Both the position numbers and the translations under genes were made by a program. A stretch of 64,000 nt of DNA, from the NCBI GenBank assembly GCA_964035545.1, contig OZ037767.1:7022707-7086706 (forward strand), read 5' to 3'. Below, piece by piece: positions 5,153-48,900 of the stretch. The notes under the pieces are model-generated. The model saw only the letters and a program-made list of their open reading frames with translations, did no database searches and was not told the origin of the DNA. Source of the DNA: Bugula neritina (Eukaryota; Animalia; Bryozoa). The stretch's first letter is position 1. Each line of letters begins with the position of its first letter.

Positions 5153-5812
<660 letters not shown>

Positions 5813-6114: not shown

Positions 6115-7858
6115 TAAACTAAAGCCAGAGAGCTCAAATAATTCTAGGAGTCACAAGCCTTGAAAAATGCTAGCTGCTCGAGTTTGTGACCATAGTTAAA
6201 GAGTTCAATCAGTGAATGTCATTGTCATGTATATATATTATATATGTACATAAAATTTATTATGAATTTAACATAGCCTGGTGTGGCAGTTAATTATTAC
6301 AATAAACTTGTCCGGAGTTGTGTTCCCCACTATTAAGGGGTTAAATTCTCAGTAGAAGAGAAGCAAAACAAACCCTGGCCATGCTATAATAATATGTTGT
6401 TGTTCTTCCTGAGCTTAAATAAATTTATGGAAATAGCAGAGTACCATATATAGAATTCAGTTGAAAGAAATTTAGTATAAAGTTAATTGACTAGCATTGT
6501 AAACAGCTCAATTATTTCATGGCATTCACAGCGACTTAAAAAGTATATCAGTATAAAAATATTATAACTCTATACAACCATAGTTATAAGTAAGGTTGTT
6601 ATCAAGTAAGGAGAATGAAATACTATTTTCGAGGTCATCTGCTTGCTATTTGAGATCAATTCTCATATTAACTACTCTTAAAAATGGAACTTAAGATTAG
6701 CTCTTCAACATATCTATGCAATCCAAATGCAAAATAGTCAAGGGTTAAAGGGGTTCTTTAAAAGAGGCTACCAATTACAGTAAGTTACAAAAAGTAAGTT
6801 AGTCTATTTTCTAATGTGTAAACATCTTGCATTCTATTGTGTTTATCTTTATATCCCTATATAAGGATGATTTTGTAGGCTGTTCCTTAATTTTAAATTT
6901 TCCCTCAATATTTTCAACTTATTCAACTGCTTAGAATTGTTGGAAAGTTGCTACACATTTGTGGAAGTGCTGTATTATAATAAGTTTGCTGAAATAAAAT
7001 TGTGCTTACGAATTACGGTGTAAGCTTACATTGACCCTGAAAATCAAGTTGAAAGCTGGGAGGGTGCAACTCTTACAACATTTTATTATTTTTCTCGAAA
7101 ATACAGATTAATAACTTTTCTACAATCTATTACTACACTGCAATAAAAGCCTGTAAAGTCAGAAGTTTATGCAAGTAGTAAAAGTTAGAGTGGCAAACAC
7201 TGACAAAATTGTATTAGTTTCGATTTCTAAAAATAAATAAAAGCAATTTTGACAAAAAATTATCTATAAAATGTATAAAGAAATAATTAGTAATGTTAGT
7301 CAACACACATTGGTACCTATGTATGGTATACAAAACTTGCTATAGCTCAGTGAGTCTTTCTTCATTTGAGAGATTTAGAACGTAATTTATAGGAAATTAT
7401 GAGATATTTAAGCTTAAAGACTGAGCAATAAATTTACTAAATTTAAAAAAAACAAACAATTTTAAGAAACTCAGTATAAAAGAGTTCAAAACAAGAGAGA
7501 TAACTATGCAATGAAACTAGTTGAGCTGTCGCTCTATTTAGGGTTAATTAGCACTTAGCTACCCACATGATTACAAATTAATTGAGCATATCAGCAATTC
7601 TGTCTCTTTACAATATTATGCAGCCTGCTACACTTTACCAACAAATTCTAAACAACAAATAAATTCTCATTAAAATTTTTTCTAAAAATGCATCAATAAA
7701 ACCATAAAACTGAATCAAAAACTGCACAAGCAGTCAATAGGTATGTCTGTATAAACAGAATCGGTCGAAATGGCTGGAAACTCAAACCCTGCCAAAATGA
7801 ATTCAGAACTTGTTTTCAAAACACTAAAAGTAAAAAATATGGAGGTTACTAAAGATTT

Positions 7859-26533: not shown

Positions 26534-29500
26534 TTAGTCACTGTCAGTATCATAATCTAACTGACCATCAATATCACTGATCTCTATGTCAGGACACTGT
26601 AAGTCTTCACTAGCATGGAGGAAGTGACACTTTATAGGACAGTCGTCATTCGGTGGACGAGATGTATACATTCTCTCGTCAACCAGATCTTTGAATGAGA
26701 GAAAACTGAGCAGTGTATCCGGTAAACGTGTACGTAGTTGAGAGCACTTGTCAGGGAAGGAAGAGATGCAGTTGAAGAGTTTAGCTCGACTCAACTCTTT
26801 GAGAGATAGAGGTGATGATGATAATTCTGTTAGCCAATCACATACCTTCAGCTGCAAACAGTGATTAGATGAGAAATATTGTGTCATAATACATTGCGTG
26901 ACAGTATGAGATCCAATTTAATATCCCCCAAGTAACTTATGTATATTATGTTATGTATTGTCGTATAATGTATTATAATGCATTATATAAAATAATACAT
27001 ATATATGACGCAAAACACTATATGACACATTACATCATATAATGGTATATATAATATACACACACTTATGAAGCACATTATCATATTACTATAAACTATA
27101 CAGGTGATCGCAATGTTTTATTCACAAGAATTAAGCAGACCTTGTTCTGCAATGCCATGGGCCACTCTTTCCATTTTATCCAATCACTATTGAGACTTGA
27201 AGGATTGACATAGATGAGAAGTTTCATGAGGTTTACGAGGCCTGCTTCAGCTGCTAGAGAGACATAGCCCGACTCAAACTTGCAGCCCCAGTGAACCAAG
27301 GCTAATGAGCACTCTTCATTCAGCAAAGATATAGCATGGTGCAAAAGCTTCCTGCCCTGTTTGTCAGGCTAGAGATAAATGGGAACATATAAAGGAATGC
27401 CACTTCACTACATGCATGGAAGTAGGGAAATAAGACTTTTCTAGTTCCTTATTTACGTGAAAACTTTAAGTTCCAGCCAAGTTAACAGAAATTTAATTCA
27501 AATTATTAATAATCATGGGGCAGTAGAATAATTAGCGGGTTATAATTTTATATGATTAAAATATATGATACCAACTGGGTTATTATCAACTATCAAGGTA
27601 AACACGCCAAGCCCCTATGAACTGACAAAAATTCACGTTTAAATAATCCAACAGAGTTTTGACTTTTTTCCAATTTTGTTCATGCCTTCTTATAATAGCC
27701 GGTGTTTACACTGAATTTCACAATGTGTTTTCATGTGTGTGATATGTAATAAATCAATCATTTATAATTGTATCTCACTTGGCACTCCATACATAACAGT
27801 GGATTTGTTACATAACCAAGAATTGTATTAAGCCAAAACTCCATAAATTCCTGTTTCAAATTTCTAAGCAGTTTGAATAAATCATCAGCTAATAATTGAT
27901 TAATTAGAATTACTTTAAGTTGAAGTCACAATTGAGTTATATAATATAAAGCTAAAACTTTGACAAATATAAAGTATTTCAATGCTATCACCTAGTAGAT
28001 GTATATAATAAGGAAACCAGTTTCAATCCTGAACTATTAGTTGTCATAGAAAACTTGATGTTACTATAGAACTGAAATTCTATTAACAAACTAAACACTT
28101 ACTTTGTTAATATTATAACCATTTCTTACAAGACATCTAATTATAGAAGGCTTGGAGAGCTCAACAGCAATCGAAATGGGTGACATACCACTTTCGGATG
28201 CAACGTATTTCCGAGCATTGCTACGAAGTAGGAACTCTACTATAGAATATCTAAAAAATAAATATATACCAATCAATTCACAACACAACCTCATCAAACA
28301 TCAAAGTCTAACAATATTTAAATGGAACATTGAATAGAGAAAAGGCAATTGTTTATTAAAACATTAAATCATATTTTATTCAAATTAATAATTAAAATAA
28401 AAGATTCTTTACAAATTAATACGCAGCAAACCTTTCATAAGCGACAGCAAAATGCAAAGCAGTAAAACCCTCTTGTGTTCTGTGGTTTATGTTGCATAAG
28501 GATTTCACTAACAGTTGGCACATCTCAATATCATCTTTCAGGACGGCCCTGAAACAAACATATTTGTAAAACATGCAAAATTTAAAACAACTTCAAATAA
28601 AATCATTATTTCAAAATTCCATCAGTATACACTTTTGTACGTGTTTCCACTTTACCGAAGAATTTAAGAACTTCAAATGAAATGGCAATCATATTAAACC
28701 TCCATTATTCAGTCAAAAAGTAATATATTTGGTCAATTTCTCTAACTGTTTAAGTTTCAATACTGCTACAACCATAAAACTAGAGTTGTCAAAACCTATA
28801 ACAACAAATTTATGACTTTTAAATGTACTCTAATATAATGCTTGCTTCCACAATGTTGAAAATAACTCAATTACATGACCAATTTATCACAAGAACTCAC
28901 AATATCAAAGGAGTCTCAACCTCAGTGCTACAATCCAAACTGAATTGGTTGACGTTAGCTCCGCCCGAGATAAGGAGAGCAGATAACTCTAAGGATTGTG
29001 CCATCACAGCTCTGTATAGTGGAGTACAACCTAAATAAGACAAAGCCTCATAATTGTTAGTATATGTATTAAGAATATTATCATAGAACAAACCAGGCCC
29101 TTTCTGGTTTAAAGTACCCTAATAAAACTTTCCTTATAAGCATTCACTGCTAACTTAACTTGTGAATTATTAATGTTGTAGGTACAGTTCAAAACTTAAA
29201 TATCCATGAACACAATCGTTAAATCTTGAAAATATTTTGCCTAACCAAAACTGCAAGTGCTTCTATTATACTTAAACTCACTAAAAAACATTTTAAGAAC
29301 TATAGGTGCATTTGAGAGCATTTCTCTACAGTTGTATAAAACATGCATTACGTGAATATAACTGTATATGCATGACAAGTGACACATTAACCCTTTGCAC
29401 CAGTATACATTATATGTAGTGGACATATAAGCAAGCAAAGAGTGCAAGCAGTGAAGCACGTGCTCTAGTCTTACATGACAAAAGTAGAGTGTAAAAGCGA

Positions 29501-30179
29501 ACTTAGACACTACTAAAATATGAGCTGGTACCTCCACTTACTTTGTAACCTCTCTACCCACAAGAGCAAAGGCTATCTAAAAGTACAGGAATCGCTACAT
29601 GAACCCATTGGCTTTATGAGAAGGTACATGGTAAGTTGTATAGTGATAGAAACATTATGTAACAGCATGCACCTGTTATCTTGTCAGTAAAATCAACTTC
29701 ACACTTGAACTCGTTAACAAGAAGCTCAGCCAGTTCTACATTGCCATGGTGCACCGCCCACCTACAGAGGGAACACAACTCATTACAATATGGGCAAAAT
29801 TCATACTGAGTAGGGAACATGAAAGTTCGCCAAATATTACGAGTGTACAATAGGATACAATGCAAAGATACAGTCAGCTTAGATAACAGAAGAAAATCTT
29901 GTAGCAAACTTACCAAATAGCTCGTCTGCCATTTTGATCGCTTTTGTTAACATCAGCACCAACAGGCTTGGCTTCAAGCAGAGCTCGAGCTAAATTTATG
30001 TTTAGATTTTCACAGGCGTATATTAAAGCTGTGGGATGAGAAGGCTGCCGTATGTCGCCAATATTTGGGTCAACCTTCTCTCTCTTCATAATGTATTTGA
30101 GTGCTTTCAGCTGATTATTGTAAACAGCATCAAAAAATTTAACAGCTGCTGGTGAAGGTAGAGAAGCTGATGATGACAT
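26534..30179 (-). CDS. Ankyrin repeat and SOCS box protein (ASB-like), about 431 aa, 7 coding exons
   Basis: Exons 30179-29914, 29761-29673, 29030-28901, 28548-28432, 28250-28103, 27368-27141, 26851-26534; phases match. Ankyrin motifs TALIYA, GCTPLYRA, ETPLILA, GFTALHFA; SOCS box SPLSLKELSR...LPDTLLSFL. Confidence 0.9.
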
Positions 30180-30480
30180 GTCAATAGTTTGAAAATGTGT
30201 CTCTTTCACAATTGCTAAAAATTATAAACATAAACAAATACAGTTTTGCTCAGATATTAAATTTACTTGTGAGTAGCTCTCCTTCTACAATTTTGTTTGC
30301 AACTAAATATTTCAATAAATTGCAACCTTTGCCAAAAATACTTATCATCCTGAGTATGTATGTTGACATTATAAATAAACAAAGATTGACATTAATAACA
30401 TATTACAGAACTTTAGAAGCAAAAGTTGAATAGAAGGCTTTTGCTGTGACAGAATGACACAGTAATGACTGAATTGACTT

Positions 30481-31047: not shown

Positions 31048-32897
31048 CCTGTCGAAATACCTGTCGAATTCTTCTTCACACTGGACAACCCAAATGGATC
31101 AAAGGAGTGTGCCACATTCTTAACCAAAATTTACATTTTTAGGTCAGTAATCAGTAAGTGTGCTTAAAACTAATTTGCAGTGGAGTCAGAACAGGTAAGG
31201 TTAACCTGTCTGTGGTAAGTATGCTGTATTACATTGTGTTGCTGTCTGTTATTGAGGATTTAATCTTCATGTCTCTGATGGTTCTTGGTAGAAAACTATT
31301 GTGATAATTGCTATAATTAGTCGTAACTGATCGAGGAACTCCTTGGGCCTGGGATCTGGTTAGAACTGTAGATGATGTTTTGTTGACTATGTGATCATAA
31401 GATTTGGAGAGTGCTGGGTGGTGCTCCTCCTTGAACAGAATCAGGATAAGCAGGCAGAGGCGCTTGTTCCTCCTTCTGGATGCCAGCGGGGTCAGCCCAA
31501 GCTTTTCCATAGTTAGACTCACATCTTCCCGTCCTTTTATGTTGGCGATAAAACGAACAGCATCTGTCTGTACATTCTCTAGAGTGGCGATATCTTTCTT
31601 GCAGACGGGGTCCCAGACTGCGCATGCATATTCCAAGTGAGGCAAACATAGTGTTTTGTATGCAATGAGACGAGCGTGTTGTGGTGCCCAAAATAGAGCT
31701 CGTTTGATTATGTCTAAGTGTCTCTTTGCTTTTGCAACTTTAGTGTTAATGTGAGCATCAAACTTACAGTCAGATTTGAGCAGAACTCCTAGATATTTTG
31801 CGGGATTAACATGCTCCAAGACTAAACCATTAAGTGTGTAGTTTGGTAGATTTTGCGTTGGGTTGAAAGCCATAATCTTACTTTTGGAGATATTGAAAGA
31901 CATGCCCCACTTGTTGGCCCATATTCCTAACTTGTCGAGATTATGTTGAAATCTTTTGGCATCAACTGCAGAATTGACTGGCTGATACAAAAGAGTATCA
32001 TCGGCGAAGAGTCCAACAGAACAATCAAGGGAATTTGGCAAATCATTGATGAAGATCAGGAATAGGATTGGTCCAAGCACAGATCCTTGTGGAACTCCTG
32101 ATGTTACCGACAGTGGTTCTGAGATGTGACTCTGAAGGACAACGCATTGAGATCTGTTCGTCAAGAAGTCTGATATCCAGCTGAGAAGATAATTGCCAAT
32201 ATCGCCAATTGCCGCCAGTTTTTGCATCAGTAGCACATGGGGTACTCGATCAAACGCTTTTGTAAAGTCTAGAATTGCAGCATGGACACTTTGACGGGTG
32301 TCAATAGTTTGGAGTATGTCCTGCATTGTAGCGCATAATTGTGTTTCACACGACAGACCTTTTCTGAAGCCATGTTGACGGTTGTGTAATAGTTTATCAA
32401 CTTTTTTGAGCAGAAATCTCAAAACAAGATGCTCTAGCATTTTACAGGGTATACTGGTTAGCGATATAGGGCGGTAGTTATGAACACACTCCTTTGGTCC
32501 AGATTTGTGAAGAGGGGAGACATTGGCTGTCTTCCAGCTAATTGAGAGGTTTCCAGATTGCAGTGACACATTGAAGATGCGACTGAGGCATTCAGCAGTT
32601 TGCTCTGGAACAATATTCAAATGTGCTCTGCAGATTCCATCAGGACTGGGAGCTTTACCAGGTTTGAGCGTTTTATGAGGCTCAGAACGCCCGCAGGGGT
32701 GATGACTGGGACCTCGGGAAAAATTTGAGAGCATTTTGCAGTAAGCTGAATATCACAACTGAATTGTTGGTGAAAGTATTTATTGAGCAAGTTGGCACAA
32801 ATTTTGGGGTCTGTTACATGTTTCCCTTCAGGTGCGACGAGTGTGATTTGGTTTTGAGATTGGGTGAGTCCTTTTAAGTGTCTGTAGAAGTTGGTAA
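31048..32897 (-). mobile_element. 5'-truncated non-LTR retrotransposon (CR1/L2-group LINE)
   Basis: RT-containing ORF2 without the endonuclease domain. ACTTACA duplicated at 31041-31047 and 32898-32904 (TSD). The 3' tail is two copies of ACCTGTCGAA on a 12-bp period (31047, 31059). Confidence 0.9.
31229..32897 (-). pseudogene. LINE ORF2 reverse transcriptase, truncated and with one frameshift
   Basis: Motifs NYRPISLT, QHGFR, LDFTKAFD, GVPQGSVLGP, FADD, KYLG. The upstream segment (NFYRHLK...ANLLNKYF...VLSLIK) is in another frame and joins at the A-run near 32670-32674. Confidence 0.9.
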
Positions 32898-33059
32898 ACT
32901 TACAGTTGCAGTATGAGTATTGATATTAATTATAATTACTGTATAAAATTAAAAGCAACTCAAACTAAAACTTAAACTGTAAGTCAAAGTCAAAGTGTAA
33001 ATAACTAAATTTTAATTAAAACTGTAATTCAAATTGCGACTGTGAGTAATTGCGGATAT

Positions 33060-33451
33060 TGTGGTAAAATTATGTTGTGTGTGTGTGTCCTTTGTTACCG
33101 AGATCGGTACTTCGGTCCTCCGAAACACCGATATGCCGATTCTCGGCATATCGGAATACCGAAGTACCGAAATGCCGGATTCGGCATTTCGGATTCCCGA
33201 AGTACCGATATTCGGTATTTCGGGCCTCCGATCTCGGCAAACAAAGGAATGTCTTTGTCCTGCATGTATATAAAAGCCAGCAAGTTCCAGTATAGTTCAG
33301 TCTACTACTGGAGCTCGCTGGATAAAGACCATTGATTCACTCGGACTATACTACAATAAAGATTATCTACATTTTACCTTATTTCTCGCCTTGTTTCTCA
33401 TACAAGCATGTAACAGCACTAGTTTCATTCACAATCCACAAAACTATCACA
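33060..33451 (+). repeat. 5' LTR (392 bp)
   Basis: TGTGG...TCACA; TATATAAAA at about 33267; AATAAA at 33355. Differs from the 3' LTR at two positions by eye. Confidence 0.98.
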
Positions 33452-33452
33452 T

Positions 33453-33472
33453 TGGTGGCAGCGGTGGGATTC
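33453..33472 (+). promoter_or_regulatory. Primer-binding site complementary to the 3' end of tRNA-Leu
   Basis: TGGTGGCAGCGGTGGGATTC is the reverse complement of GAATCCCACCGCTGCCACCA, the 3' end of metazoan tRNA-Leu(AAG/TAG). It starts 1 nt after the LTR. Confidence 0.9.
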
Positions 33473-33502
33473 TACGAATAGCTAGTTGCTAAGAGAAATA
33501 GG

Positions 33503-34402
33503 ATGGCCCCAGGGGGCCCAGCCCCTGAGGCAGCAGCACCACCAGCCCTCACTATTGAGGCGCTGGTCACAGCCCTCCAGGGATTGCGGGGGCAAGGACA
33601 GGCAGCACCTGGTGACAGGTATCGCCTCCAGCCCCCGACTTTCGGAGGAGATGGAGACGTGGAACAGTTCATCAAAGAGTTTGAGGACGTGGCCGCCACC
33701 GCTGAATGGCCAGTACGGGTGCGCGTCCTCCAACTCCGGGCCTGCCTGACAGGCCGGGCCAGGAACTTCGCACTGGGACCCGACGAAGCCCACATCCTGC
33801 GGGCTCTTAGGGCCCGGTTCGGGTTGACCACGGAAGAGGCGTCAGACCAGCTACAAGTGATGAGGAGAGACCGAAGGACATCTCTGGAAGATCACGCTAA
33901 CGAGGTAGAGCGCCTGGCTCAGGCTGCTTTCGGTCACGCCACTGGCGACGATCGGAAGCGCCTCGTTTTTAACGCGTTCTTCCGGAGTGTGAACCACCCG
34001 GACCTCCAGCGGTACTGGCTAGCCGCGAAAGTCAAGAGCCTGGACGAAGCACTAGAGATGGGGAAGGCCTACTTCCAGGTGGAAGAGCCACGGAGGGCGA
34101 ACTACGCAGCTCGCCAGGTGGCCGGAGATGCAGAAGAGGTACCCCCAACCCCACAAGTGGCAGCAGCAGCTACCCCGTCGCCTGAGCAGACGCAGCTCAA
34201 CATGCTGATGAGCATGATGAAAGGCCTGCAGGCTACGGTGACGGAGTTGCAGCGCAACCAGACGGACAGGCGGGCTCCCCGCTCGCGGGACGACCCTGTC
34301 CGCCCCCCTATGCCCACTTGCTGGGAGTGCGGGATGCCAGGACATGTGAGAAGGCACTGCCCTAAGGGACAGAAGCCTTTAAACACCCGAGGCTCACGGT
34401 GA
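33503..34402 (+). CDS. gag: Gag (299 aa) with a CCHC zinc knuckle
   Basis: First ORF after the PBS; capsid-like PPTFGG..VEQFIKEFE..W region; CWECGMPGHVRRHC knuckle. Confidence 0.93.
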   Translation: MAPGGPAPEAAAPPALTIEALVTALQGLRGQGQAAPGDRYRLQPPTFGGDGDVEQFIKEFEDVAATAEWPVRVRVLQLRACLTGRARNFALGPDEAHILRALRARFGLTTEEASDQLQVMRRDRRTSLEDHANEVERLAQAAFGHATGDDRKRLVFNAFFRSVNHPDLQRYWLAAKVKSLDEALEMGKAYFQVEEPRRANYAARQVAGDAEEVPPTPQVAAAATPSPEQTQLNMLMSMMKGLQATVTELQRNQTDRRAPRSRDDPVRPPMPTCWECGMPGHVRRHCPKGQKPLNTRGSR

Positions 34403-34421
34403 ATTCCGCCACCCGTGGGCC
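34378..34421 (+). promoter_or_regulatory. Programmed -1 ribosomal frameshift signal (gag to pro-pol)
   Basis: T TTA AAC heptamer in the gag codon phase at 34378-34384; 6-nt spacer; stem GGCTCACGG (34391-34399) with CCGTGGGCC (34413-34421). The -1 frame is the protease frame. Confidence 0.85.
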
Positions 34422-35550
34422 CCACGCCAATCCGGTCCGGGATAGGACTCGGAAGACAACAGAAGAGACCTCTCCAGAGTCGACCTACATCGAGTGGCAC
34501 GCAAACCGGAGATCTCGGAGACCGAAAGGCCTACCCGATCCTCCTGCCCTGCCACTCGATACCCGGATGGAACTAGAAGAAACCGGATGGCAGGCACCTC
34601 GGAGATCTCGGAGACCGCAAGGTCTACCCGATCCTCCAGCCTGGCCACTCCGTAACCGGTTCGCGGGGTTGCCCGAGGAGGTTGTGGAGGAGGATTCAGC
34701 TTACTCGCAAGAGTATCCCGAGCTACCCTTCCGACCTCAGAAAACCCCCGTTGTCTCTAAGACGAAGAGGAGGCCCGCTGTGCGGACCCAAGTCGTGTCT
34801 CCCCCAGAGACTGACCGCTCCAGGAGCACCCAGCCGTATGGAAGCAGCTACTTCCTGCCCGGAAAGATTTCGGGTAAAGCTGCCACATTCCTACTGGATA
34901 CTGGGTGCACTACCAACCTGCTGAGTAGGCGTCTCTTTGACACCCTTGGTGCACGAGAGCGGGCGAGCCTCGAGCCGTATGAAGGTGCGCATGGTACGTT
35001 GGCGGACGGATCATGCATTCCTTTCTACGGCGTCATTTCACTACCTGGACGCGTCCGTGATCAAGCCGTTCACGAGACGTTCATAGTCAGCCAGCTGAAG
35101 GAGGACGCCATCTTGGGAATGCCCTTCCTGGAGAAACACCAGTGTCACATGGATTTCCAGAAGTCAGTGGTGGTGATGGCTGGGAAGGAACTTGTCTGTG
35201 TTGACAAGTTTGGCAGGCCCTTGGTGGGCGGAGTCCAGGTAGTGCGGGACTGCACAGTTCCGGGGAGGTCCCAGGCGACTCTCCGATGCAGAGTCAACTG
35301 CAAGGAGATCGCCGGCCTGGGGATGGTTGAAGGAACGCACGGAGCCATCCGACTAGCAAACAGCCTGAATAGGCTAGATTGTCGGCAAGAGCTCCTCGTG
35401 CAGTGCATCAACCCCTTCACGGAACCTGTCCGATTATCGGCCGGAACGATGGTGGGGAAGTACCACTCCATCCAGGAAGCGGATGTGGGTCCGGCGCTGG
35501 AGACAGTGGCCGACACCCAGAGAAACCCCCCTCACACCAGACGTGGCTGA
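34378..35550 (+). CDS. pro: Pol N-terminal part: aspartic protease (entered by -1 frameshift)
   Basis: FLLDTGCT catalytic motif and DAILGMPFL; open from the slippery site to TGA 35548-35550. Confidence 0.9.
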   Translation, partial: FKHPRLTVNSATRGPHANPVRDRTRKTTEETSPESTYIEWHANRRSRRPKGLPDPPALPLDTRMELEETGWQAPRRSRRPQGLPDPPAWPLRNRFAGLPEEVVEEDSAYSQEYPELPFRPQKTPVVSKTKRRPAVRTQVVSPPETDRSRSTQPYGSSYFLPGKISGKAATFLLDTGCTTNLLSRRLFDTLGARERASLEPYEGAHGTLADGSCIPFYGVISLPGRVRDQAVHETFIVSQLKEDAILGMPFLEKHQCHMDFQKSVVVMAGKELVCVDKFGRPLVGGVQVVRDCTVPGRSQATLRCRVNCKEIAGLGMVEGTHGAIRLANSLNRLDCRQELLVQCINPFTEPVRLSAGTMVGKYHSIQEADVGPALETVADTQRNPPHTRRG

Positions 35551-38500
35551 CCTGTATGGCGGAGCATGCGGAAACTGTACGAGTAGTACTGAACGCCAAG
35601 TACTGGCTCAACTACTCGCGGAGTACAGTGATGTCTTCAGTCGTGGCGATGGAGACATGGGGCTGACTAAGGTTATCTCCCACGAGATACCTCTGGCAGC
35701 CGGCACCACTCCCATCAGGCAGCCTACCCGACGTCTGGGCCCGGAGAAGGAGAAGGAGGTGAGCCGACAGGTACAGGATCTTCTGGACCGGGATCTGATT
35801 GAGCCTGCCCACGGTGCGTGGAGCTCCCCAGTGGTCCTGGTCAAGAAGAAGGATGGTAGCTGGAGATTCTGCGTGGACTACCGCAGACTCAACAGCGTTA
35901 CCATCCAGGACGCCTACCCTCTCCCACGGATAGATGAGTCTCTGGATGCCCTCGCGGGTAGCAAGTACTTCAGTACTTTGGATCTGCTTAGCGGGTACTG
36001 GCAAGTGCCCCTCAGTCCTGATGCCCAGGACAAAGCAGCATTCAGTACTCGCGACGGGCTCTGGAAGTGGAAAGTACTGCCATTCGGACTAACGTCCGCT
36101 CCGGCAACATTCCAACGGCTCATGGAGCAAGTCCTCAGTGGGTTACACTGGAAGACCCTCCTCATCTATCTGGACGATGTCATTGTCATCTCCCCAGACT
36201 TTTCGACTCATGTCAGTCGTCTGCGGGAGGTCTTTGACCGTCTCCGGGCAGCCGGACTGAAGCTGAAGCCCTCCAAGTGCGCACTCCTGCAGCCAGAAGT
36301 CACATACCTGGGCCATGTGGTTGGCCGTGATGGGGTCGCTACCGATCCAGAGAAGGTACAAGCTGTGAAGGAGTGGACTGTCCCCCGCGACCTCTCTGAG
36401 TTGCGTGCATTCCTGGGCCTAGTAGGGTACTACCGGCAGTACATACCTGGTTTCGCAGGAGTGGCTCAGCCGTTAAATCGGCTGACCGCAAAGGGAGTCC
36501 AGTGGCAGTGGACACAGGAGGAACAGCAGGCATTCGACCACCTCAAGCAACGACTAATGGAAGCGCCAATCCTGGCGTATCCTGATCCAGCCAAGGAGTA
36601 CATCCTGGACACCGACGCCAGCGACCACAGCGTGGGAGCCGTCTTGTCTCAAGTCCAGGGTGGAAGTGAGGTGGTCGTGGCTTACTATAGCAAGACTCTC
36701 GCGGCCGCCGAGAAGAACTACTGCACCACTAGGAAGGAACTCCTAGCAGTAGTCAAGGCGGTCAAGCACTTTCGGCCATATCTGTATGGGAAATCGTTCC
36801 GTCTGCGAACAGACCATGCATCACTGATATGGCTGTGTAAACGTGCAGAGCCCTCGAGCCAGGTGGCTCGTTGGCTAGAGATTCTTGCTGAGTTCTCTTA
36901 CCGGATAGAGCACCGTGCAGGCCGGAAGCATGGGAACGCCGACGGCATAAGCCGCCGGCCGGTAGAGGACTGTAAGCAATGCCTACACATTGAACAGCGG
37001 GACGGGGGACCCGCTCGCCTTGACGTGGAAGCAGGACTAGTGGAGGGCACCACCTACCAGTGGGAGCACGGCCATCTTCGGACCGAAACCCACCAGGACG
37101 GTGTCCAGGCACTCCACGCCAACCCTACTCTGCACCAGAACGTCAAGGAGCTGTGCCGACTCCAGGAGACGCTACCCGGCGCGGTAGCGGACATCTTCCG
37201 GGCCAAGAAGGAGGGCCGACGGCCTAGCGAGGAACAGCAGCAACAGGGGGACGTTGAGTTCCAACTCCTCTGTCGTCGCTGGGATGCCCTCAAGGTCAGT
37301 CCCGATGGCCTCCTGATGATAACGTTAGCAGCAGACAACCGCCAGCAGAAGAGGGACCGCGTCGTCTGTCCACGCGCCCTCCGGCGGGAACTGATCTGGG
37401 ACACCCATAAGCAGGCTCATGCTGGAGTCAGTCGGGTCATCAGGTGTCTGCGGCTACGTTGGTATTGGCCCGGAATGACTCGGGACGTACGACTGCGGGT
37501 ACGGCAATGCGAGGTCTGCCAAGCTAGCAAGCATGGCCGCCCCACGGAAACCACTGGTCGACGCCGGCTGTACGCTGGTCGACCGTGGCAAGTAGTGGCG
37601 GTAGACCTCGTCGGGCCTATGCCGTTATCCGCCAGAGGGAACACCTGGATACTGGTGCTCACGGACCACTTTACCCGGTGGGCGGATGCTCTGGCTATTC
37701 CAGACGCCACCGCCCCCACGGTGGCCCGGACCCTGGACCAACATGTATTCTGTTACCTCGGTTTGCCCGAGCAGATACATACAGACCAGGGTGCCCAGTT
37801 CCAGTCCCAGCTCATGGGAGACCTCTGCCGGATATGGGGGGTGAACCAGAGTCGGACCACCCCATATCACCCGCAAGGGAACGGAGTCGTCGAGCGGAAC
37901 AACAGGATGTTGGGTGACGCGCTCCGGAGCCTGCTGCTTGGTCGAGGTCAGGAAGAATGGGACGTGGTGCTGCCGCAGATCATGCGGGCTTACCGCAGCA
38001 CACCACACTCCGCCACGCAGGAGACCCCAAACTTCCTGATGTTAGGCCGAGAGACGCGGGTCCCGGAACACCTGACGTACCATGTTCCTGCCCCCGAGTC
38101 ACCGGTACACGAATATGTGGAGGGTCTGATGGACATCATGGGCAAAGCTCATGATGCGCTGCGCACCCAGCAGTGGCAGACCCGCACAGAGGACTCAGAG
38201 GAGCCCCCGTTGTACCAAGTGGGAGACTGGGTCTGGATGGTGAGTTACCGTAGGCGGCGCGGACAGTCGGCTAAGCTTCAGCCCAAGTTCGTCGGCCCCT
38301 ACTGCGTAGTAGAGGTGCTGCCCAACCACACATACCGTGTGGAGCGCTCTGGACAGGTCTCTGTCCAGAGCGAGCAGCGCCTCAAACCTTACCATGCCAG
38401 CCCAGACGCGGTGGGTCAGGCTCCACCCCTCTTGGAGCCCCACCGTCAGCCCAACCGTCGTGGACGGGCCACCCAGCCCCGTGAGGTGGAGATTATGGTC

Positions 38501-38809
38501 CCCAGGGAGGCGGACCAGGAGCAGGCTGCCCTGATAGAGCAGCTGGAGCGACAGCAGAGAGCGGAGCGGGAGCAGGAACAGCGGCAAGCCCTTGGATCAC
38601 AACCCTTCCTGGGGGAGGACACCCCCACCCCCGTACGGGGTGAAGACGGGGACCCCCCTACTAGGGCAGCCCAGGAGCCACCAACACCATCAGAGTCTGT
38701 TCCACTTGAGAGGAGCCAGCGGCCAAGAAGACCTCCCAGGTACCTGGCAGACTATGCTGTGGGGCACCTGGAGGGGCCCCCTCCTGAGGACGACCCCCCC
38801 CCACACTGA
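35483..38809 (+). CDS. pol: Pol: reverse transcriptase, RNase H and integrase (+1 frame relative to protease)
   Basis: RFCVDYRRLN, LPFGL, YLDD (RT); ILDTDAS, RKELLA, RTDH (RNase H); H-x3-H...CEVC, VDLVG/TDQG/VERNN (DDE) and GPY (integrase). The real homology starts near 35540; the GTG at 35483 is not a likely start. Confidence 0.95.
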   Translation: MWVRRWRQWPTPRETPLTPDVADLYGGACGNCTSSTERQVLAQLLAEYSDVFSRGDGDMGLTKVISHEIPLAAGTTPIRQPTRRLGPEKEKEVSRQVQDLLDRDLIEPAHGAWSSPVVLVKKKDGSWRFCVDYRRLNSVTIQDAYPLPRIDESLDALAGSKYFSTLDLLSGYWQVPLSPDAQDKAAFSTRDGLWKWKVLPFGLTSAPATFQRLMEQVLSGLHWKTLLIYLDDVIVISPDFSTHVSRLREVFDRLRAAGLKLKPSKCALLQPEVTYLGHVVGRDGVATDPEKVQAVKEWTVPRDLSELRAFLGLVGYYRQYIPGFAGVAQPLNRLTAKGVQWQWTQEEQQAFDHLKQRLMEAPILAYPDPAKEYILDTDASDHSVGAVLSQVQGGSEVVVAYYSKTLAAAEKNYCTTRKELLAVVKAVKHFRPYLYGKSFRLRTDHASLIWLCKRAEPSSQVARWLEILAEFSYRIEHRAGRKHGNADGISRRPVEDCKQCLHIEQRDGGPARLDVEAGLVEGTTYQWEHGHLRTETHQDGVQALHANPTLHQNVKELCRLQETLPGAVADIFRAKKEGRRPSEEQQQQGDVEFQLLCRRWDALKVSPDGLLMITLAADNRQQKRDRVVCPRALRRELIWDTHKQAHAGVSRVIRCLRLRWYWPGMTRDVRLRVRQCEVCQASKHGRPTETTGRRRLYAGRPWQVVAVDLVGPMPLSARGNTWILVLTDHFTRWADALAIPDATAPTVARTLDQHVFCYLGLPEQIHTDQGAQFQSQLMGDLCRIWGVNQSRTTPYHPQGNGVVERNNRMLGDALRSLLLGRGQEEWDVVLPQIMRAYRSTPHSATQETPNFLMLGRETRVPEHLTYHVPAPESPVHEYVEGLMDIMGKAHDALRTQQWQTRTEDSEEPPLYQVGDWVWMVSYRRRRGQSAKLQPKFVGPYCVVEVLPNHTYRVERSGQVSVQSEQRLKPYHASPDAVGQAPPLLEPHRQPNRRGRATQPREVEIMVPREADQEQAALIEQLERQQRAEREQEQRQALGSQPFLGEDTPTPVRGEDGDPPTRAAQEPPTPSESVPLERSQRPRRPPRYLADYAVGHLEGPPPEDDPPPH

Positions 38810-38873
38810 CTGTCACCCCATCTTGGTTGGAAATTCCCTCCATCACCCCGGAGAATTCCACCAAGAAGAAGAA

Positions 38874-40343
38874 ATGGCCGACCGAATTTCGGAAGACACT
38901 CGATCACGCGAGTTGTCTTTTCAAAATCCGGGGGAAATTCCCACGAGCCACGCGACTCGGACTTCAGCAGGTAAAACTTCTGAAGCACGAGGTTCGGCCA
39001 TTTCTCATTCTGACTTCACACGGCTCGCACGGCAGTTGCAACTCAAACTAAATTCTGATTCTAATACTCATTTTGATTTTATCACTGTTCTCCGTACGCT
39101 ATCAGCAGCTATGGGAATTACTCTACCAGATACACAATCAGGTATTTCTTCTAGATTAGATCCTCCAGTTGCGGAGTCTAGTCAAACTACAGTAGACTGG
39201 TCTTTACTAGACTTACTTGGTTCTGATTTCTTAGAACCGGAGGCCGAGATGGATCTTGGAGATGACTCTGCCATTGATACTTTGTTGAATCACGATGTAG
39301 GCTCAGTCAATTTCTGCGATACACCTCGGCCCTCGGTTTTTAACTTATCTCCATACACACCTGTGCCGAATTTCGGCGATAGTGAGACCGGCTTCTCACA
39401 GCCTCTACTATCTATTCTAGAGGAGCGAATGGACGTTGAGGAGGCCAGTCGGTCCGACTCCCCTCTCCCACCGGCCCTTGCTTCGGCTTCTACCAGCCAG
39501 CAGGCCGCCACCTCCTCCACAGAGGTGTGTTCCGCCATCGTTGGCCCTGACCCCAAACCGGTCGAGCTTCAGCTCACGGCCGGGGAGGAGCAGGGCATCC
39601 TACACGGCGACCACCTGCCAGCAGAAGAAGATACCTCCCCAATACTGGCCCTGCCTCGGGCCCTGGTCGCCCGCCAGTATTGAGTGACTGGACCCACCAA
39701 TCTAAAAATTGGCGATGCTTGCGGTGAGCCGGGCAACCGCATCTGCCATGAGTGTAAGAGGAAATTCTCCTCTGCACGGCGGCTGCGCGTACACGCCCCA
39801 CAGCACTACATCAACGTGTTTTGCCCGTGTGGGGAGTTCTCCTACCAGAGAGACTATGTGTTGAGACATCAACGCATAGCTCACTGCCACACGGGCTACA
39901 CGTTTGCTGTAGACCAGGCCTCCTTTCCCGAATTTCGGGACCTGGTGCTGCCACACGTGGCGGATCCCCACAAACGGGCTGCTCTCGCCCTGGGATTCCC
40001 CGCGTGTAGGCCTGTTCGGGAGGAAGAAGGGGAGCCCGCCGCGACACCCCAACCGGCAGCCACCCAGCCACTTCGGGTCATGCTGGCACGGGTCGGACCA
40101 GGTGCCAGGGCCGATTCATCGGACCTGGGCCCCCGACCCTCGGCGGCGGGCGAGAAGCAGACGCACCGCCAGCGACGTCCTGCCCGTGGTACCACCGACC
40201 ACCCTAGGCACCAGACGTCGGCTCAGTTGGCAGAGGAGGTACACCAGTTACGCCGGCAGCTCCGCCGATATGAAGAGGAGCTGGGGCAACTCCGGAGACG
40301 AGTTAGCCGCCTGGAGCGGGGTCGGTCTGGCGACCGCCGCTGA
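38874..40343 (+). CDS. Retrotransposon ORF3: acidic region + two C2H2-type zinc fingers + coiled coil, interrupted by one in-frame TGA (39681-39683)
   Basis: GAAATGG start at 38874. Track ORFs 38592-39683 and 39684-40343 are in the same frame and abut. CHECKRKFSSARRLRVHAPQH (C-x2-C-x12-H-x3-H), CPCGEFSYQRDYVLRHQRIAH and the heptad repeat LAEEVHQLRRQLRRYEEELGQLRRRVSRL. Confidence 0.8.
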
Positions 40344-40624
40344 GACTATTTGTATAGTATTTTCTTTCCTATTCTTATTTTTTTTTTTGTTTATTATATG
40401 TGTGTAAGTTCTTCATGTAATGTATGTACCTACTCATGCTCTGTTTTTCTTGTGTGTGCACAAATTTTTCCTGTTTTTTTTTGTTATCATTGTATTATTA
40501 CTATCACTGCATGTTTACCATATTTTTTTCTGTGTGTTACTTTCAACTGTGTGTTTTATTGTCGTGTCATTCCCTGTTGTGTGTTTGTGTTGTGTACGCC
40601 TCTTTATCGGAAAGCATGCTTTCC

Positions 40625-40637
40625 GATGGGGGGTGTG
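40625..40637 (+). promoter_or_regulatory. Polypurine tract region
   Basis: GATGGGGGGTGTG immediately 5' of the 3' LTR. Confidence 0.75.
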
Positions 40638-41029
40638 TGTGGTAAAATTATGTTGTGTGTGTGTGTCCTTTGTTACCGAGATCGGTACTTCGGTCCTCCG
40701 AAACACCGATATGCCGATTCTCGGCATATCGGAATACCGAAGTACCGAAATGCCGGATTCGGCATTTCGGATTCCCGAAGTACCGATATTCGGTATTTCG
40801 GGCCTCCGATCTCGGCAAACAAAGGAATGTCTTTGTCCTGCATGTATATAAAAGCCAGCGAGTTCCAGTATAGTTCAGTCTACTACTGGAGCTCGCTGGA
40901 TAAAGACCATTGATTCACTCGGACTATACTACAATAAAGATTATCTACATTTTACCATATTTCTCGCCTTGTTTCTCATACAAGCATGTAACAGCACTAG
41001 TTTCATTCACAATCCACAAAACTATCACA
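40638..41029 (+). repeat. 3' LTR (392 bp)
   Basis: Direct repeat of 33060-33451, followed by TSD ATAT. Confidence 0.98.
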
Positions 41030-42243
41030 ATATTAACTGTAGAGTTTCATAATCTTTCATTATAAAAAATTCCACAACTACACTAATAAACTTGCCACAA
41101 CTATTCCATTGCAATTACTAAATTAAAATTAGCATTAACCACTAGGACTAGTAATAGTAGCAGCTGTAGGGACTGGGCCTAAAATAAATGTATTTTTGTC
41201 ACCAACAGATGTCACGCGGCAACATAACTTATGTGTTGAAGTGGTTTTGTAGCCATCCTCATCGAAAAAAATGTAAATTAAATTATTTTAATAAATGTTT
41301 AAAATTAAATTTAAAATTAGCAAAAATTTCAATAATTCAAAAAAAATTTACGGTTTTTAAAAATGCTAAAGTAATAACATTAATATTGTAGCACCCCAGT
41401 TTTTAATCGCTAATTTTCAGCACGAGAACTTGGCTAGCTGAATTGCAGATCGCAGTTGCCATTGCAAATGTGAAATACTAAATAGTTATCATAACATTGG
41501 TGATTGCCATTTTAATTGCTGAACAAAATTTTTATCAGCAATTGAAAGCAGTTGCTGTAAGCTATTTTTATTAGCTTCTCTAAGGTTTAACTTTAAATTA
41601 TAAATATAATAATTTTAATTTAAACTTTAATTATTTATTTAATTAATAATTTTATAATTATATTAATATTAAATTATTAAATTTGATATTTATTTATTAT
41701 ACTTTTAGTTTTACTCTTGTAGTAATACTAATTGTTAATTTAAATGCCATATTGATGTTCATCTTTATATTGAATTGTATATCTATATAAAATTAAATGT
41801 GTTTATTTTATTCAATTATTGCGGTTGCCCAGCCCCATGGGCCATGGCCATTGGATTTGCCATTTGGTATATTAATTTATAATTAGAATTTATGTTCATG
41901 ATAGTTGAAGTTCATGTTGATATACTTCATTAATTAGTTTTCCAGTCTTTAAATAAATTTAACTCCAAGCTTTAAACTTGAATTCTTAAAGGAAAATGAA
42001 CTACATAATCATATTCATAACGATAATTATCTTAAACTGAAACTTTTAGGCAAATGTCAACTATTTGGCTAGTAGTACTACTACTAGTAATAGTACATTT
42101 ACTATCAATATGTTAATGATGTTTATAGTTTAGACTTTAGAACAATAGTATAATTAGTATGTTTATACAAGCGAAATTCTATCATTAAATCTATTTGTGA
42201 CAACATTTGTTCAACCAAAAATCTCTATTTTGAAAATTTAAAT

Positions 42244-42953: not shown

Positions 42954-45900
42954 ATGGCAGACGAAGTGTCAAATGGTCCCGATATGCCAGCAGCTACCAC
43001 TGTTAATGAGCAAGCTATTGAACAAGCTGAGAGAGTCAAGGAAACTGCCAACGAGTACTTTAAAAGTAAATGCACAAATACTATAATTATTGCCATACAC
43101 TTTATGATAATACTAAGAGTCTGTCCATATCTGTACGTTTCTGTTAAAATTGCATTTATTTTACATCATCTCTGTTTTTAAGAACTGGTGACGTTTACAA
43201 ACAAGATACCTCTTGCATTTTCAAAAACATCTAAATTATTAAATATATATTACGTTCAAAATGCAATATGCAGAGTTTCACCAGTCAGAAGATAGTCGTG
43301 TTGAAAACAATACTGTTTTATTTGTTTTTCATATTGATTTATGTTATTAAGACGGCAGATATCAATAGTTTTTTTCTATGAGAATGTCTCAATATGGACA
43401 GACCTTAGTAGTAGCACAGTACCAGAAGCAGTATTACTTCCTTAATACTTGAACTTTTGCAATAAATTGATCAGTCTGACTCATGAACTACTGAAATACT
43501 ACTATAAACATTAGTCAATTTGAGGTAATAGAAGGGATAAATTTAGAATTATTTTCATAATCATATTTTTAAAGTCATAGAATAACATATTTCCTTGTAT
43601 GGATTTATAGTTATGTCTAATCAATATACTGATAATACATGTGTGCCAAAATTAGTAATACCAAAACAGGGTTACGACTACTAATAATTATTATTAAATC
43701 AATTATGTTTTTTCACACTTGCAATTAGTATTTGCAAGAGAAATTTGCAAATATTTCCAGTTAATAAGAACAATAAACTTATTCAGTTACTTTTCTTTAC
43801 TGACTAAATATTAATGTTTGCAGTAGGGTAGGTCTATTTAGTTTCAAACTTTTAAAATTTCCTAAAAATCAAGTTTTCATTGAATTTATAAAGTAGTGTA
43901 GTTATCCGATTGAATTTTAATAACTTTGACAACTTTTTTTTTCAAGAATTCATGTTTTGATTGGCAGGTATTTAATGAATATTTGTAGGAATATGTGGGC
44001 CCAGTTGTGTCCTTAGACTTAAGATACATGTATGGTTACGGTTACTGCTCTCTCCTCCCTAAAGCCGGCAAACTTGAATTTTGTAGATCAAAACTATGAC
44101 GAAGCTATCAAGTTTTATACTCAAGCTATTGAAATCAACCCAAATGTTGCTGCATATTATGGAAACAGGTCTTTTGCATATATTAAAACAGAATGCTTTG
44201 GCTACGCCCTGGAAGATGCAAACAAAGCCTTGCAGCTGGACCGAGCTTTCTTAAAGGTGAGAACCAGGTTAAAAATGTTTCCATTTTTTCAAAAGTTGTC
44301 TTGCATTTAAGAGACAGTCTAACAGTCTGTTGGAACGATTATTCAAGATTCTTTAAATTATAATTTGTGATTTTTACTGGTTTTCCGGTAAATATATTAT
44401 GTTATAAGTAAACACTGCTGTAGTAAGTAGCTAGTAGCTGCTAAAGGAAATTTTGTATTTGAGTTTTTTTTGTTAGTCAGTATTTAGTCTATTGATTTAG
44501 TTGAATGCATTGAATCATTTTAGTGAAGTATCCAAAACTGTCAAAGTTTAATATCGTTCTTTTTGTAAAACTTTTGTACTATGCATCCACCACTAAAAAC
44601 TTTGTATTGTAAGTTGACACAGTTTCTTGTTCTAATCAATAAGATAATTTAGTTGACTAGTTGAATTTAATTCTACCTGTTGTTGGTGTAATTCTAGTGT
44701 CATGCCTTTGGCATTTTTATTAACCATGAAATATTCCTGTATATATAACGGTTTTAACTTTGAAGATGATCATAATGACAGTTGAGATATTAATGTAAAT
44801 GTTTAATAAGGTTTAGCTTATACGGCCTCAAAACAAAGAACAGATGTTCTAAGCTACCTGTTAGAGGGTTTGTGCCGAATACTTACTCTGTTTCACGTGA
44901 TATACTTGTAGGCTTACTATAGAAGAGCGTGTGCTAACATGGCGTTAGGAAAATTCAAGTTGGCTCTAAAAGATTTTGAAGCAGTGAGTCTAAAACTATT
45001 GATAGCGTCATTATCATTTACTGGTTACATACAATATGTCTCGTGAGGATAATTTCTTTCTGTGTTCAAAGACCCTAATCCGTAGTGTTAAACCAGTGGG
45101 TGAAACTGCAACAGCTACCAGCATAGCTGCTGTGTTTCACATTCCGCTCTGTTGCTAGCATTGATCAAGGTTAAGGGCCATGGCTTACCATCAAGGAGTT
45201 GTAATTCCATGGATATAAGTTAACTTAAAGTAGTTTTTGGTTAAATTGATAACGTTTGTAAAAGCCAGTCTTCATTTACAAATATTGTAGTCAGTTAATG
45301 TTTGCAATGCTGTTCAGGTTCATAAAGCTAGACCCAATGATAAAGATGCTAAGAATAAATACAAGGAGTGCGACAAAATCGTGAAGCAAAAGGCGTTCGA
45401 GAAAGCGATTTCCGTGGATTCTAAGAAGACTGACTTAGCCTTAGATATAGAGTCTACACTTGATGCATTGAGTGAGTGGGCAGCTTGCAACACTACTTAT
45501 TCCCAATACTGCTTACATATATGTCTACCGTGCCTATGTACTCATTTTACAATCTCAATAATATCACAATATTTGTTTAGTAAGTCTAGCTGTAAAACAG
45601 ACATTTATTACAGGTTTACATACTGACTTGAAACGCCAAAATATTACAAACGTAATATGCTGTTGTGTTGGTAAATAGTTTTGATTGCTGAACTCTATCT
45701 GGTTTTATTCTTCCTTGAAACAGCCAACATCACTACTGCCAGTTTACTTGCTGTAGGAGTACCACCTGAATATGATGGACCTCATCTAATCAATGGCCAA
45801 GTGACTGAAGAGTTTATGGAGGATTTGCTGATAGCTTTCCGAGACTGTAAGAAGCTTCACCAGAAATATGCATATCAGGTATTTACAACCCACAGTACGA

Positions 45901-48900
45901 GCTTTATTCACACTTCTTCACTAAGAACTGAAATATCATATGTTTAATTTTTTTTTCAATTCTACTATTGAAAATAGAGAATTATAGTTAATCTATCGTT
46001 GGTTTGAAAAAAAAAATTAATTTTTGATAATGTATATTATAAAGTACTGAGGGAAATTTTGCATGCAGTAGTTTATGAGTTCATAATTGCACTGCGAGTT
46101 GTTAACTTGCTTTCCTATAGTATACGCATACTTCAAGCAATATACACCATATTCTCCCACATTGCATCATATCATGCTGTTCATGTATCATTTTCTAATC
46201 TCCTCAGATTATGATTGCTGCTAAGAAATATTTCCAAGCTCAGCCCTCCCTGGTTGACATATCTGTACCAGAGGAAACCAAGTTCACGGTGTGTGGTGAC
46301 ATCCACGGCCAGTTCTACGACTTGCTGAACATATTTGAGCTCAACGGCAGGCCGTCCGCTGACAATCCTTATGTATCCTTTGACATCATTGCTGCCTGAC
46401 TCAGACCCCCTACTGATAGATTAACTAAGTGCTTCAATATATTATGCTTTAGCGTCCATGTTTCTTGGAATGTGAGTGGAAATGAGATACAATATACATT
46501 TATATGAATATTGTGGCTAGTTTGTGTAATGTTTCTCACCTAAAGTTATGATGATTTTCTCAACCAGTTGACGCATAAAGTGTTGGGGAAGCTGTGTTAG
46601 CAATTAATCACTTAATGCTCTTGGCAAGGCTGAGTATTATTTAGACTTCTGGTATTGTGGAGTTGTCTCCTTAACTGCTCGTTGTATACAGCTATTTAAT
46701 GGAGATTTCGTAGACCGAGGCTCCTTCTCTGTCGAGTGTATTCTCACTCTCTTTGGATACAAACTGCTCTATCCTGAAAGGTTCTACATGTCCAGAGGTG
46801 AGTTGCGACTTTTCTACTTCTCTGTGCGTTTCTTCACATTTACTTGCATCTAGTGATATGTAGGATTTTACTATATGTGAAAATTTATATAATTATTAAA
46901 CATTTACTCGGGTGAAATATGTTTGTTTAAATTTTGAATGGTTGAAATTTTACATCACAATATTTTTCTAATTATACAAAAGATGCAGTGTATACATGAC
47001 ACATATTTATGGTGTGTACAATAATATTAAGTAAACTCTAAGTTGTAGGTATGTTGACTAGTACCACAGAGTACATGTCATTTATTCTCTCCTGTGCAGT
47101 CTGTTACCAGGTGCAGCTGCTCAGCATGTCTACAGCGGCTGTCAGGTGTGCAATTACTAATGGAGTCATCTACTCTTTTCTGAGATTTGTTCTATTATCT
47201 TTAAAGGAAATCATGAGAGTGTGAATATGAATCAGATGTACGGATTTGAAGGGGAAGTAAAATCAAAGTATGCTGGATCACGTATGGTTGATTTGTACAC
47301 CGAGATATTCAACTGGCTACCTCTGTGTCACTGCATTGAGAATAAAATCCTAGTAAGTGCCTAGTCGATATCTCTACTCTTTCTAGTATCGCTACTCTTT
47401 CTAGTACTGCTTTAATGGCAATAACCTTTTTCATAAGCATGAAAGACAGAGATCTATTCATATTAAAACTTGTAAGCTCTATATAAATTGCCGTCACCCA
47501 TAACGGTGTTGAAATTGACAGCAAACTTAATCAATTTTTATATAATATAAATTTCCGGTGTTTAACAGAAGCTCCTGTTTTAATGATGCAGAGACCATAA
47601 TTCTGATTATTCTTATTCAGGTGATGCACGGTGGACTGTTTTCTGAAGATGGTGTAACTTTGCAGACTCTTCGGAATCTAGAAAGGAACAGACAGCCTCC
47701 AGATAGCGGTATAATATGTTTACTCTCTAGTTTAATCATTTATACTTCAATATACTTGTCTTCTCCTTTGTCTTATCACACAGCATCCATATTTTCCAGG
47801 GTTAATATATATTATAAAAATAGCATTTAAATGTTTTGCCTTTTGTGTTGATGCAACCTATAGAATTACTCAGGGCAAACAACTCCTGAGGCTTGTTATT
47901 GTGTGTGAAAGCCAAAGTTCAACATAAAATAATGGTTTTCTCTTTATACGATTTCTGTGTTTTAGTGTGATTTCAGTTTGTCTTTAATTAGCTGGCAATA
48001 GTAATTTTCATAAATAAAGATCTCAGTGTCATTATATCTGTGAATAGAACTAAATATTTCAATATGATAATAATTACTTAAATTACTTGATTCATCTTAT
48101 TGTAGGGCAAATCTTACTATATAACAATTATTTGTAAATATTTTATTTCTCTGGTTTTAATAATTTGTTTTATTGTATAGTGTCTAAATTACACGTTGCG
48201 CTCTAACATTTATCATTGTAATACATTTAAATATATCTGATGAGCTTGTTTACCTGAGTATGTCACCTTCCAACAATCTCTCTGACATCATGCCTTGGTT
48301 GCAGGTGCCATGTGTGACCTGCTATGGTCTGACCCTCAGCCTCAGCTCGGCAGATCTTCAAGTAAACGAGGGGTGGGCACTCAGTTTGGACCAGACGTCA
48401 CCAAAAGGTTTCTTAAGGAAAATAATTTAGACTACGTCATAAGAAGCCATGAAGTCAAACATGAGGGTTATGAGGTGATGCATGATGGAAAATGTATCAC
48501 AATTTTCTCGGCCCCCAATTACTGGTATGTTGAGAACTCATGTGTTGTGTTCATGTACATTATACTATGTTGTAATTGTAGCTGCTTTATAGGTCTGAAC
48601 TGAAGGAAAATTTTTGGTTTCCGTGGGATTTTTAATTGAAATTTTTAAAAATGGTGCATCACTTTTCAATATAAAGGGGCATAGTATTAATAGCCACTAA
48701 CTTTATCATTGGCCTTCCTAGGTTAAGTGCGAGTGTCCTCAGCTCTACCTGTATATCACTCCTGTGGTTTTTATTTATTTGATTGCAGATTTGGTCTCGA
48801 TTAAATTTCCACTAGCATCATGTGAGCTGGAGAATTTAGCAGCCCTAAATGTAGAGTCATTTAAGTAATTGACCTGTGCTAAGTCAGCAATTTTACCATA

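Follow-up and report, generated by a model that had tools for sequence, protein, structure and literature searches.

A probable zinc-finger tail of Pol in a Ty3/Gypsy retrotransposon of the bryozoan Bugula neritina

Described counterparts and the host element

Foamy virus Tas and the HTLV proteins Tax and HBZ are nuclear regulators of the LTR with acidic, zinc-binding or zipper parts, encoded by separate 3' genes and made from spliced or internal transcripts. Repeat arrays occur in many U3 regions, where host factors usually bind them. In the portions of the literature drawn on here, chromoviruses (e.g. MAGGY) carry an accessory folded domain behind the integrase GPY/F-SH3 within the Pol frame (PMC12440569; bioRxiv 10.1101/2021.11.30.470311), fusions of chromodomains and PHD domains to retrotransposons have been surveyed (bioRxiv 10.1101/2021.11.30.470311), and integration tethering has been treated (PMC8149907). 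VANC of the Arabidopsis VANDAL elements acts on its own transposon family via short repeat motifs that differ between families (PMC5735166), according to the text available of that source. In the sections consulted of PMC10309623, the animal Gypsy element Cer1 of Caenorhabditis encodes CERV, an accessory protein of the nucleus that is not an Env and has both a Cys-rich loop and a leucine zipper, and the accessible account of errantiviruses gives them an env of the F type or the HSV/gB type, with the order gag-env-pol in bryozoans (PMC13524379).

In a window of 64,000 nucleotides of the AT-rich genome of Bugula neritina (contig OZ037767.1), we delimited a 7,970-base LTR retrotransposon at 33060-41029, in which a frame encoding two zinc fingers follows the integrase (Table 1). 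The element is a Ty3/Gypsy LTR retrotransposon: Pfam identified protease, RT, RNase H, integrase and GPY/SH3 in Gypsy order, the best PDB match of the element RT was the Ty3 RT (E 4e-95), and the order PR-RT-RH-IN, the TG...CA LTRs, the target-site duplication, the primer site and the purine tract are those of Ty3/Gypsy (Metaviridae). We take the primer-binding site to be of the tRNA-Leu type, and a slippery heptamer at 34378-34384 lies in the correct frame for a -1 shift from gag into pro-pol. Two 72-base direct repeats (83% alike, 34495-34659) were seen in the pro frame before the protease.

Table 1 Annotated parts of the element, in positions of the window
Feature	Position	Strand	Remark
Target-site duplication ATAT, 4 bp	33056-33059 and 41030-41033		flanks the LTR element
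5' LTR	33060..33451	+	392 bp, TG...CA; 390/392 identical to the 3' LTR
CCGA/TCGG sites (18)	33098..33237	.	12/17 spacings 8 bp; same array in the 3' LTR, 40676-40815
Primer-binding site	33453..33470	+	same sequence in relative L001; L002 likewise
gag with CCHC knuckle	33503..34402	+	overlaps pro-pol
Protease part of pol	34366..35550	+	same frame as RT in relatives (tblastn of P0134, P0169, P0173)
RT-RNaseH-integrase-GPY/SH3, linker, RxxRxPxxLxDY near the end	35378..38809	+	
N-terminal part of the tail, low-complexity spacer	38832..39680	+	N-terminal half of the ORF3 of the initial annotation (ATG 38874)
In-frame TGA	39681..39683	+	lesion of this copy
Conserved domain of ~110 residues	39684..40019	+	helix, two fingers, strand, two helices
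Finger 1, C2H2	39744-39806	+	within the ~110-residue domain
Finger 2, CxC-x12-H-x5-C	39822-39887	+	within the ~110-residue domain
Basic patch RQRRPAR in a disordered linker	40167..40187	+	from sequence and structure model
C-terminal amphipathic helix, ~4.5 heptads, then stop	40218..40343	+	from structure model
Polypurine-tract-like stretch	40625..40637	+	5' of the 3' LTR
3' LTR	40638..41029	+	pairwise LTR match 390/392

Elsewhere in the window, a LINE-type reverse transcriptase fragment of 507 codons (31229-32752, minus strand) lies ~300 bases upstream of the element. The genes around it are presumably host genes, comprising an ankyrin-repeat gene (26534-30221, minus strand), a TPR gene resembling protein phosphatase 5 (44023-45947, plus strand) and a NEK-like kinase with RCC1-like repeats (~11767-22616, plus strand). 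A TA microsatellite of ~540 bases (5155-5692) is interrupted regularly by ACATGT.

The element is neither an errantivirus nor a chromovirus. Unlike the accessory domains of chromoviruses, its module combines a pair of C2H2 and CxC-H-C fingers with a terminal coiled coil and an acidic, low-complexity spacer, which spans ~170-460 residues after the integrase motif in fused relatives, and Pfam found no chromodomain in the element frames or in relatives P0173, P0156 and L002. The frame had been annotated as non-env, and we agree: it shows no env feature and no env family in Pfam, and in contrast to an errantivirus env ORF3 its product combines zinc fingers with a charged helix and a disordered spacer and has no glycoprotein feature. 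It differs from Tas, Tax and HBZ in belonging to the Pol of a Gypsy element, and searches of PDB and viral folds revealed no homology of the finger module to retroviral transactivators. CERV, as far as the source text goes, is spliced from gag-region exons and exports genomic RNA, and it is no integrase tail and lacks a pair of C2H2 fingers (PMC10309623), while VANDALs are DNA transposons with VANC as a separate gene whose binding is shown in the portion of PMC5735166 at hand; for the finger tail, binding is something that we infer. The finger tail is a real, conserved and apparently undescribed accessory module, and the literature text searched gave no account of it, although Repbase, GyDB, Dfam or supplementary tables could contain one. 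A term search of the accessible text of bioRxiv 10.64898/2026.08.24.746577 found retrotransposons and integrases unmentioned.

Position of the finger module in Pol

The initial annotation had described a sense-strand frame of ~489 codons after pol, at 38874-40343. Its position was right, but the frame is not open throughout, as a TGA stands at codon 270; the first in-frame ATG after it, at 40080, lies past both fingers, which sit in a 219-codon piece. The tail frame is more than a chance frame, since it has one stop over 38811-40340, where the remaining plus-strand frames have 22 and 13, and since a HMMER search with the 219-residue piece yielded 115 homologous cluster representatives at E<=0.001 (63 at 1e-10), many of which end in a similar helix. 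In three public runs (X1, X3 and X4), the contigs that differ from this copy at the TGA codon numbered six in X1 (1961 of a depth of 2047), seven in X3 and six in X4 (the whole depth in both), and all of them have a sense codon at 39681-39683 save one in X3 and one in X4 with a stop of their own. The TGA is thus a lesion of this copy, because nearly all sibling contigs carry a sense codon there, and on the same observation programmed readthrough of the TGA as a rule of the family is ruled out. Upstream of the place of this stop codon, 61 of the 75 aligned homologues extend by at least 20 residues.

Two frame breaks accompany the stop. One lies between pro and RT at ~35523-35531, at a C run, as judged against relatives with one frame, and the other between integrase and tail, between 38768 and 38832, a region that contains a run of nine C (38794-38802); the latter was not among the sibling indels listed (12 of 97). 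The element is a defective copy that inserted recently, or else in part a product of misassembly. Differences between siblings favoured third codon positions (23/40, p 0.001, from 40 of the 81 difference rows; 16/33 when counted by distinct site, p 0.05), which may be read as a weak sign of purifying selection.

Wherever a relative has the module joined to a pol end that can be read, both lie in one Pol frame, which goes against the separate ORF3 proposed initially. These relatives comprise three Pol clusters, the DNA loci L001/L002, and the proteins P0126 and P0128, and within the single frame of the three clusters and of L001/L002 the order is PR-RT-RH-IN-SH3, linker, acidic spacer, C2H2 and CxC-H-C fingers, and coiled coil. 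The three clusters are among 10 Pol clusters retrieved when the integrase end served as query, of which the representatives and 30 listed members were scanned; in these three, namely P0138/P0146/P0147/P0156, P0169/P0157 and P0173 (2236 aa, protease to end), a single chain contains RT or integrase motifs and, close to its C-terminus, the finger domain with a helix behind it. The remaining seven clusters have no such chain: four end at most 13 residues past RxxRxPxxLxDY, one is without the motif, the called protein of P0139 has a 414-residue tail that lacks fingers, and P0134, the closest Pol relative (73%), has a tail of 192 residues without fingers. At the DNA level, L001 and L002 were the near-complete ones among five loci; they are 99.6% alike and represent one family, in which gag overlaps a single frame of 1744 and 1760 codons, respectively, with the finger domain (E 5e-18 and 2e-17) and a helix at its end. 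In the other three loci, which are distant, no fingers were found.

P0126 and P0128 both start with the integrase-end motif, and the whole module follows in frame. P0126 is 72% identical to this copy in the finger domain; in the N-terminal part of the tail (38832..39680), identity is 31% to P0126 and 45% to P0068. The Pol lineages that share the place of the tail are ~60% identical in RT-IN. A tree of 13 RT-IN rows required two changes for the fused rows, with five forks open, and the integrase-finger fusion may have a single origin. A finger-alignment search of proteins of 1008-2875 residues, a weak search, found no fusion. We consider it very probable that the ORF3 is the tail of Pol, fused in frame in relatives and broken here by a frame break and a stop.

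Two observations adjoin these findings. The motif RxxRxPxxLxDY (38720-38755 in this copy) closes Pol in four clusters and, in those with a fusion, stands ahead of the tail; it may mark a processing or localisation site. P0108 and P0123 are open frames of 1145-1208 residues in which the finger tail comes straight after the protease, RT, RNase H and integrase being absent, and they are possibly non-autonomous elements that keep the tail.

Parts of the tail and the U3 array

The first finger had been described as canonical, starting at 39744 with the conserved F and L, and we confirmed it as C-x2-C-x12-H-x3-H. The second had been given an H-x4-H ending and is actually C-x-C-x12-H-x5-C. Among the ungapped rows of an 80-row alignment, the ligands of finger 1 were kept in 70/74 (C21), 74/76 (C24), 77/79 (H37) and 78/79 (H41) and those of finger 2 in 76/78 (C47), 77/78 (C49), 71/77 (H62) and 68/76 (C68), while H67, the His chosen earlier, was present in only 7/75; all eight ligands are conserved down to ~25% identity. 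Ligands and core of finger 1 fit PF00096, with a Pfam score of 19.5 bits that is below the cut-off of 25.2, and finger 2 departs from the two-His pattern of this family with a Cys as fourth ligand, making it a CxC-H-C variant. Pfam has no family for the finger domain, with weak generic C2H2 matches in at most 12 of the 76 rows. The first 112 residues of the 219-residue piece were modelled as one compact domain (pLDDT 96.2, pTM 0.85). A profile search with it found DNA-binding proteins that have C2H2 fingers in tandem (best E 1e-10), and the top rows of a fold comparison were finger pairs on DNA, with a weak match to Kaiso (Z 4.0, rmsd 2.8, 57 aligned). Foldseek with the finger domain returned no match at E<=0.001 in PDB or BFVD, nor did the helix before the fingers or the strand and helices after them have a fold match, which is not proof of a new fold. 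A homodimer predicted with zinc scored 0.14 compared to a mark of 0.32.

Neighbours in a protein atlas were unnamed or generic C2H2 clusters (0.87-0.91) and serve as leads. Finger patterns matched 50 times in metagenome contigs and 36 times in viral contigs, with no match confirmed, and a pol scan over viral contigs gave no match. When 20 homologues of the finger domain were looked up, two were gene models of another bryozoan, Watersipora subatra. The genes, XP_067940964 and XP_067944745, encode free-standing proteins with the finger domain and may be domesticated copies of it. In Watersipora subatra, P0009/P0117 carry the finger domain twice, followed by a coiled coil, and P0093 carries it once; P0026 also has it twice.

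Outside the fingers, most of the parts first proposed were found again. The acidic stretch has its best 39-residue tile at 39171-39287 (net charge -11, 10 W/F/Y/L), the LxxLL in the acidic region is present as LLDLL, and the Ser/Pro/Ala linker and the basic patch are present, the latter as a putative nuclear localisation signal. The coiled-coil heptads (40227-40313) have hydrophobic residues at 9/12 a/d places and form one helix, residues 179-216, in the model. The arrangement is not that of a bZIP, as 13 residues separate the first heptad from the end of the basic patch, which lies in a Pro-containing loop of low model confidence, and Pfam found no bZIP in the tail frame. Spacers were assessed for activation-domain character with the rule that combines acidic and W/F/Y/L residues (Kotha and Staller, eq. 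1; PMC10550315), for which the consulted text gives a predictive value of 0.2-0.7 in its revised form. Six of 14 spacers passed, five more were short by 1-2 units and three were clearly short, compared to 0/12 integrase-proximal linkers and 1/12 enzyme regions as controls. The spacer of this copy passed (21 tiles), as did 13/200 of its shuffles. LxxLL was found in the tails of 6/10 relatives checked, and a tandem acidic repeat of ~13 residues was noted in the L002 tail. Overall, the transcription-factor-like layout proposed at the outset (acidic patch, finger pair, basic patch, coiled coil) stands and recurs in many relatives. The finger domain, the activation-domain-like patch and the coiled coil recur in these relatives, so that the idea of a one-off captured fragment fails.

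The CCGA array comprises its 18 sites in 140 bases, with an orientation that alternates in runs, and ends ~30 bp before the TATA box (33269). No 4-mer reached that count in any of 300 shuffles, and CCGA/TCGG never exceeded seven per 140 bp outside the LTRs. The LTR RNA has a strong fold of stacked hairpins (z -12.2), which follows from the alternating array and is no separate evidence. The fused relative L002 has a different U3 array, with 12 CCAAC (0/300 shuffles) at 6296-6720, before the TATA box, and a single CCGA in its U3, compared to 18 CCGA and no CCAA in the U3 of this copy; the two finger domains are 27% identical and their finger helices differ. Family-specific motif arrays in non-coding DNA, as in the VANC system, were thus found with different motifs in both of the two LTRs examined, a small sample without a tail-less control. 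Neither R/U5 nor the 3' end of either of two distant loci showed a comparable motif excess. The CCGA array is a candidate binding array for the finger domain, although it may be host factors that read such arrays.

Possible roles of the tail

We prefer, tentatively and at somewhat less than even probability, a reading in which the tail is a regulator encoded by the element for itself, which binds the array in its own U3 so as to activate or protect a new insertion, because this reading accounts for most of the parts; we infer every step of it past the fusion. Gag-Pol would be made via a -1 shift, and the tail would enter the nucleus with integrase and cDNA, whether still joined to integrase or cut free by the protease. 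Two tails at a time, held by the coiled coil, would then occupy the alternating CCGA sites with their 8-bp spacing, the acidic patch would recruit activators at the LTR, and the bound tails would turn on the freshly integrated LTR or shield it, acting as an activator or anti-silencer specific to the element. The frames P0108/P0123 keep the tail without integrase, which fits a role apart from integration. VANC, acting on its own family via motifs that vary between families, does what this reading would expect of the tail. Against this proposal, the acidic patch of this copy is not significant in comparison to shuffles and 8/14 spacers fail the rule; P0134 has a tail without fingers and four clusters end near the motif. 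A protein made solely within Gag-Pol would also be packaged and low in abundance, which would be an unusual way to deliver an activator.

In this subfamily, the tail might instead have become a separate ORF3, with translation starting at the ATG at 38874 from a transcript that is spliced or begins internally. This ATG lies 64 bases past the pol stop, the closest Pol relative (P0134) is without fused fingers, P0007 and P0125 (479 and 563 aa) were called without an integrase tail, and the two Watersipora genes encode the domain as free-standing proteins. However, P0126 aligns to 38832-40337 in one piece (41%), so that the similarity starts upstream of this ATG, and it has no Met at that place; P0126 and P0128, which are closer relatives by their fingers, have the fusion; and this copy has two other lesions, one of them also at a C run, so that a third is to be expected. 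We therefore judge a separate frame improbable. A functionless captured host fragment or a chance open frame might be suspected from the three breaks in this copy and from host-annotated Watersipora genes that carry the domain, but this is largely refuted and leaves a very slight chance at most, because the eight ligands are kept (68-78 of 74-79 rows) down to the most distant homologues and the domain has the same Pol place across lineages; the third-position lean among siblings also speaks against it.

If the tail is part of Pol, it might remain on the integrase and steer insertion via host DNA or a chromatin protein, the U3 array being one for host factors. The tail does sit at the integrase C-terminus behind GPY/SH3, where chromodomains have a precedent (PMC12440569; MAGGY, bioRxiv 10.1101/2021.11.30.470311), and engineered zinc-finger-integrase fusions have been made for targeting (PMC8149907), according to the text of these sources at hand. 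Such tethering leaves unaccounted for the recurring acidic-hydrophobic patch, the distance of several hundred residues between folded domain and integrase, and the protease-plus-tail frames P0108/P0123 without integrase, and one insertion site of the element was seen (n=1). We regard it as the main rival, somewhat less probable than the regulator. The tail could instead have a structural role, in which it holds integrase on the cDNA ends or pairs the LTRs from the U3 array, like transposase on subterminal repeats, with no role in transcription. Both cDNA LTRs contain the array, and the tail is fused to integrase and has a coiled-coil end, yet the acidic patch is unexplained by this, the array lies directly 5' of the TATA box in both families examined, and tail-less relatives exist, which makes a purely structural role quite unlikely.

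Returning to the tail as a self-encoded regulator, a marine-invertebrate Gypsy lineage would have its own sequence-specific transcription factor on the integrase end, with an array that changes along with the fingers and a domain since adopted by hosts, a broader proposal that we put forward as speculative and at present unlikely. Extras at the integrase C-terminus set the insertion site of LTR elements or their escape from silencing, and those known in the literature searched are chromodomains and PHD-type readers. Here, a Gypsy lineage combines a transcription-factor-like module that has no Pfam family with an orderly, family-specific promoter array, and the finger/array pair offers a cheap and direct test of an LTR-specific, self-encoded regulator and of the co-change of fingers and sites.
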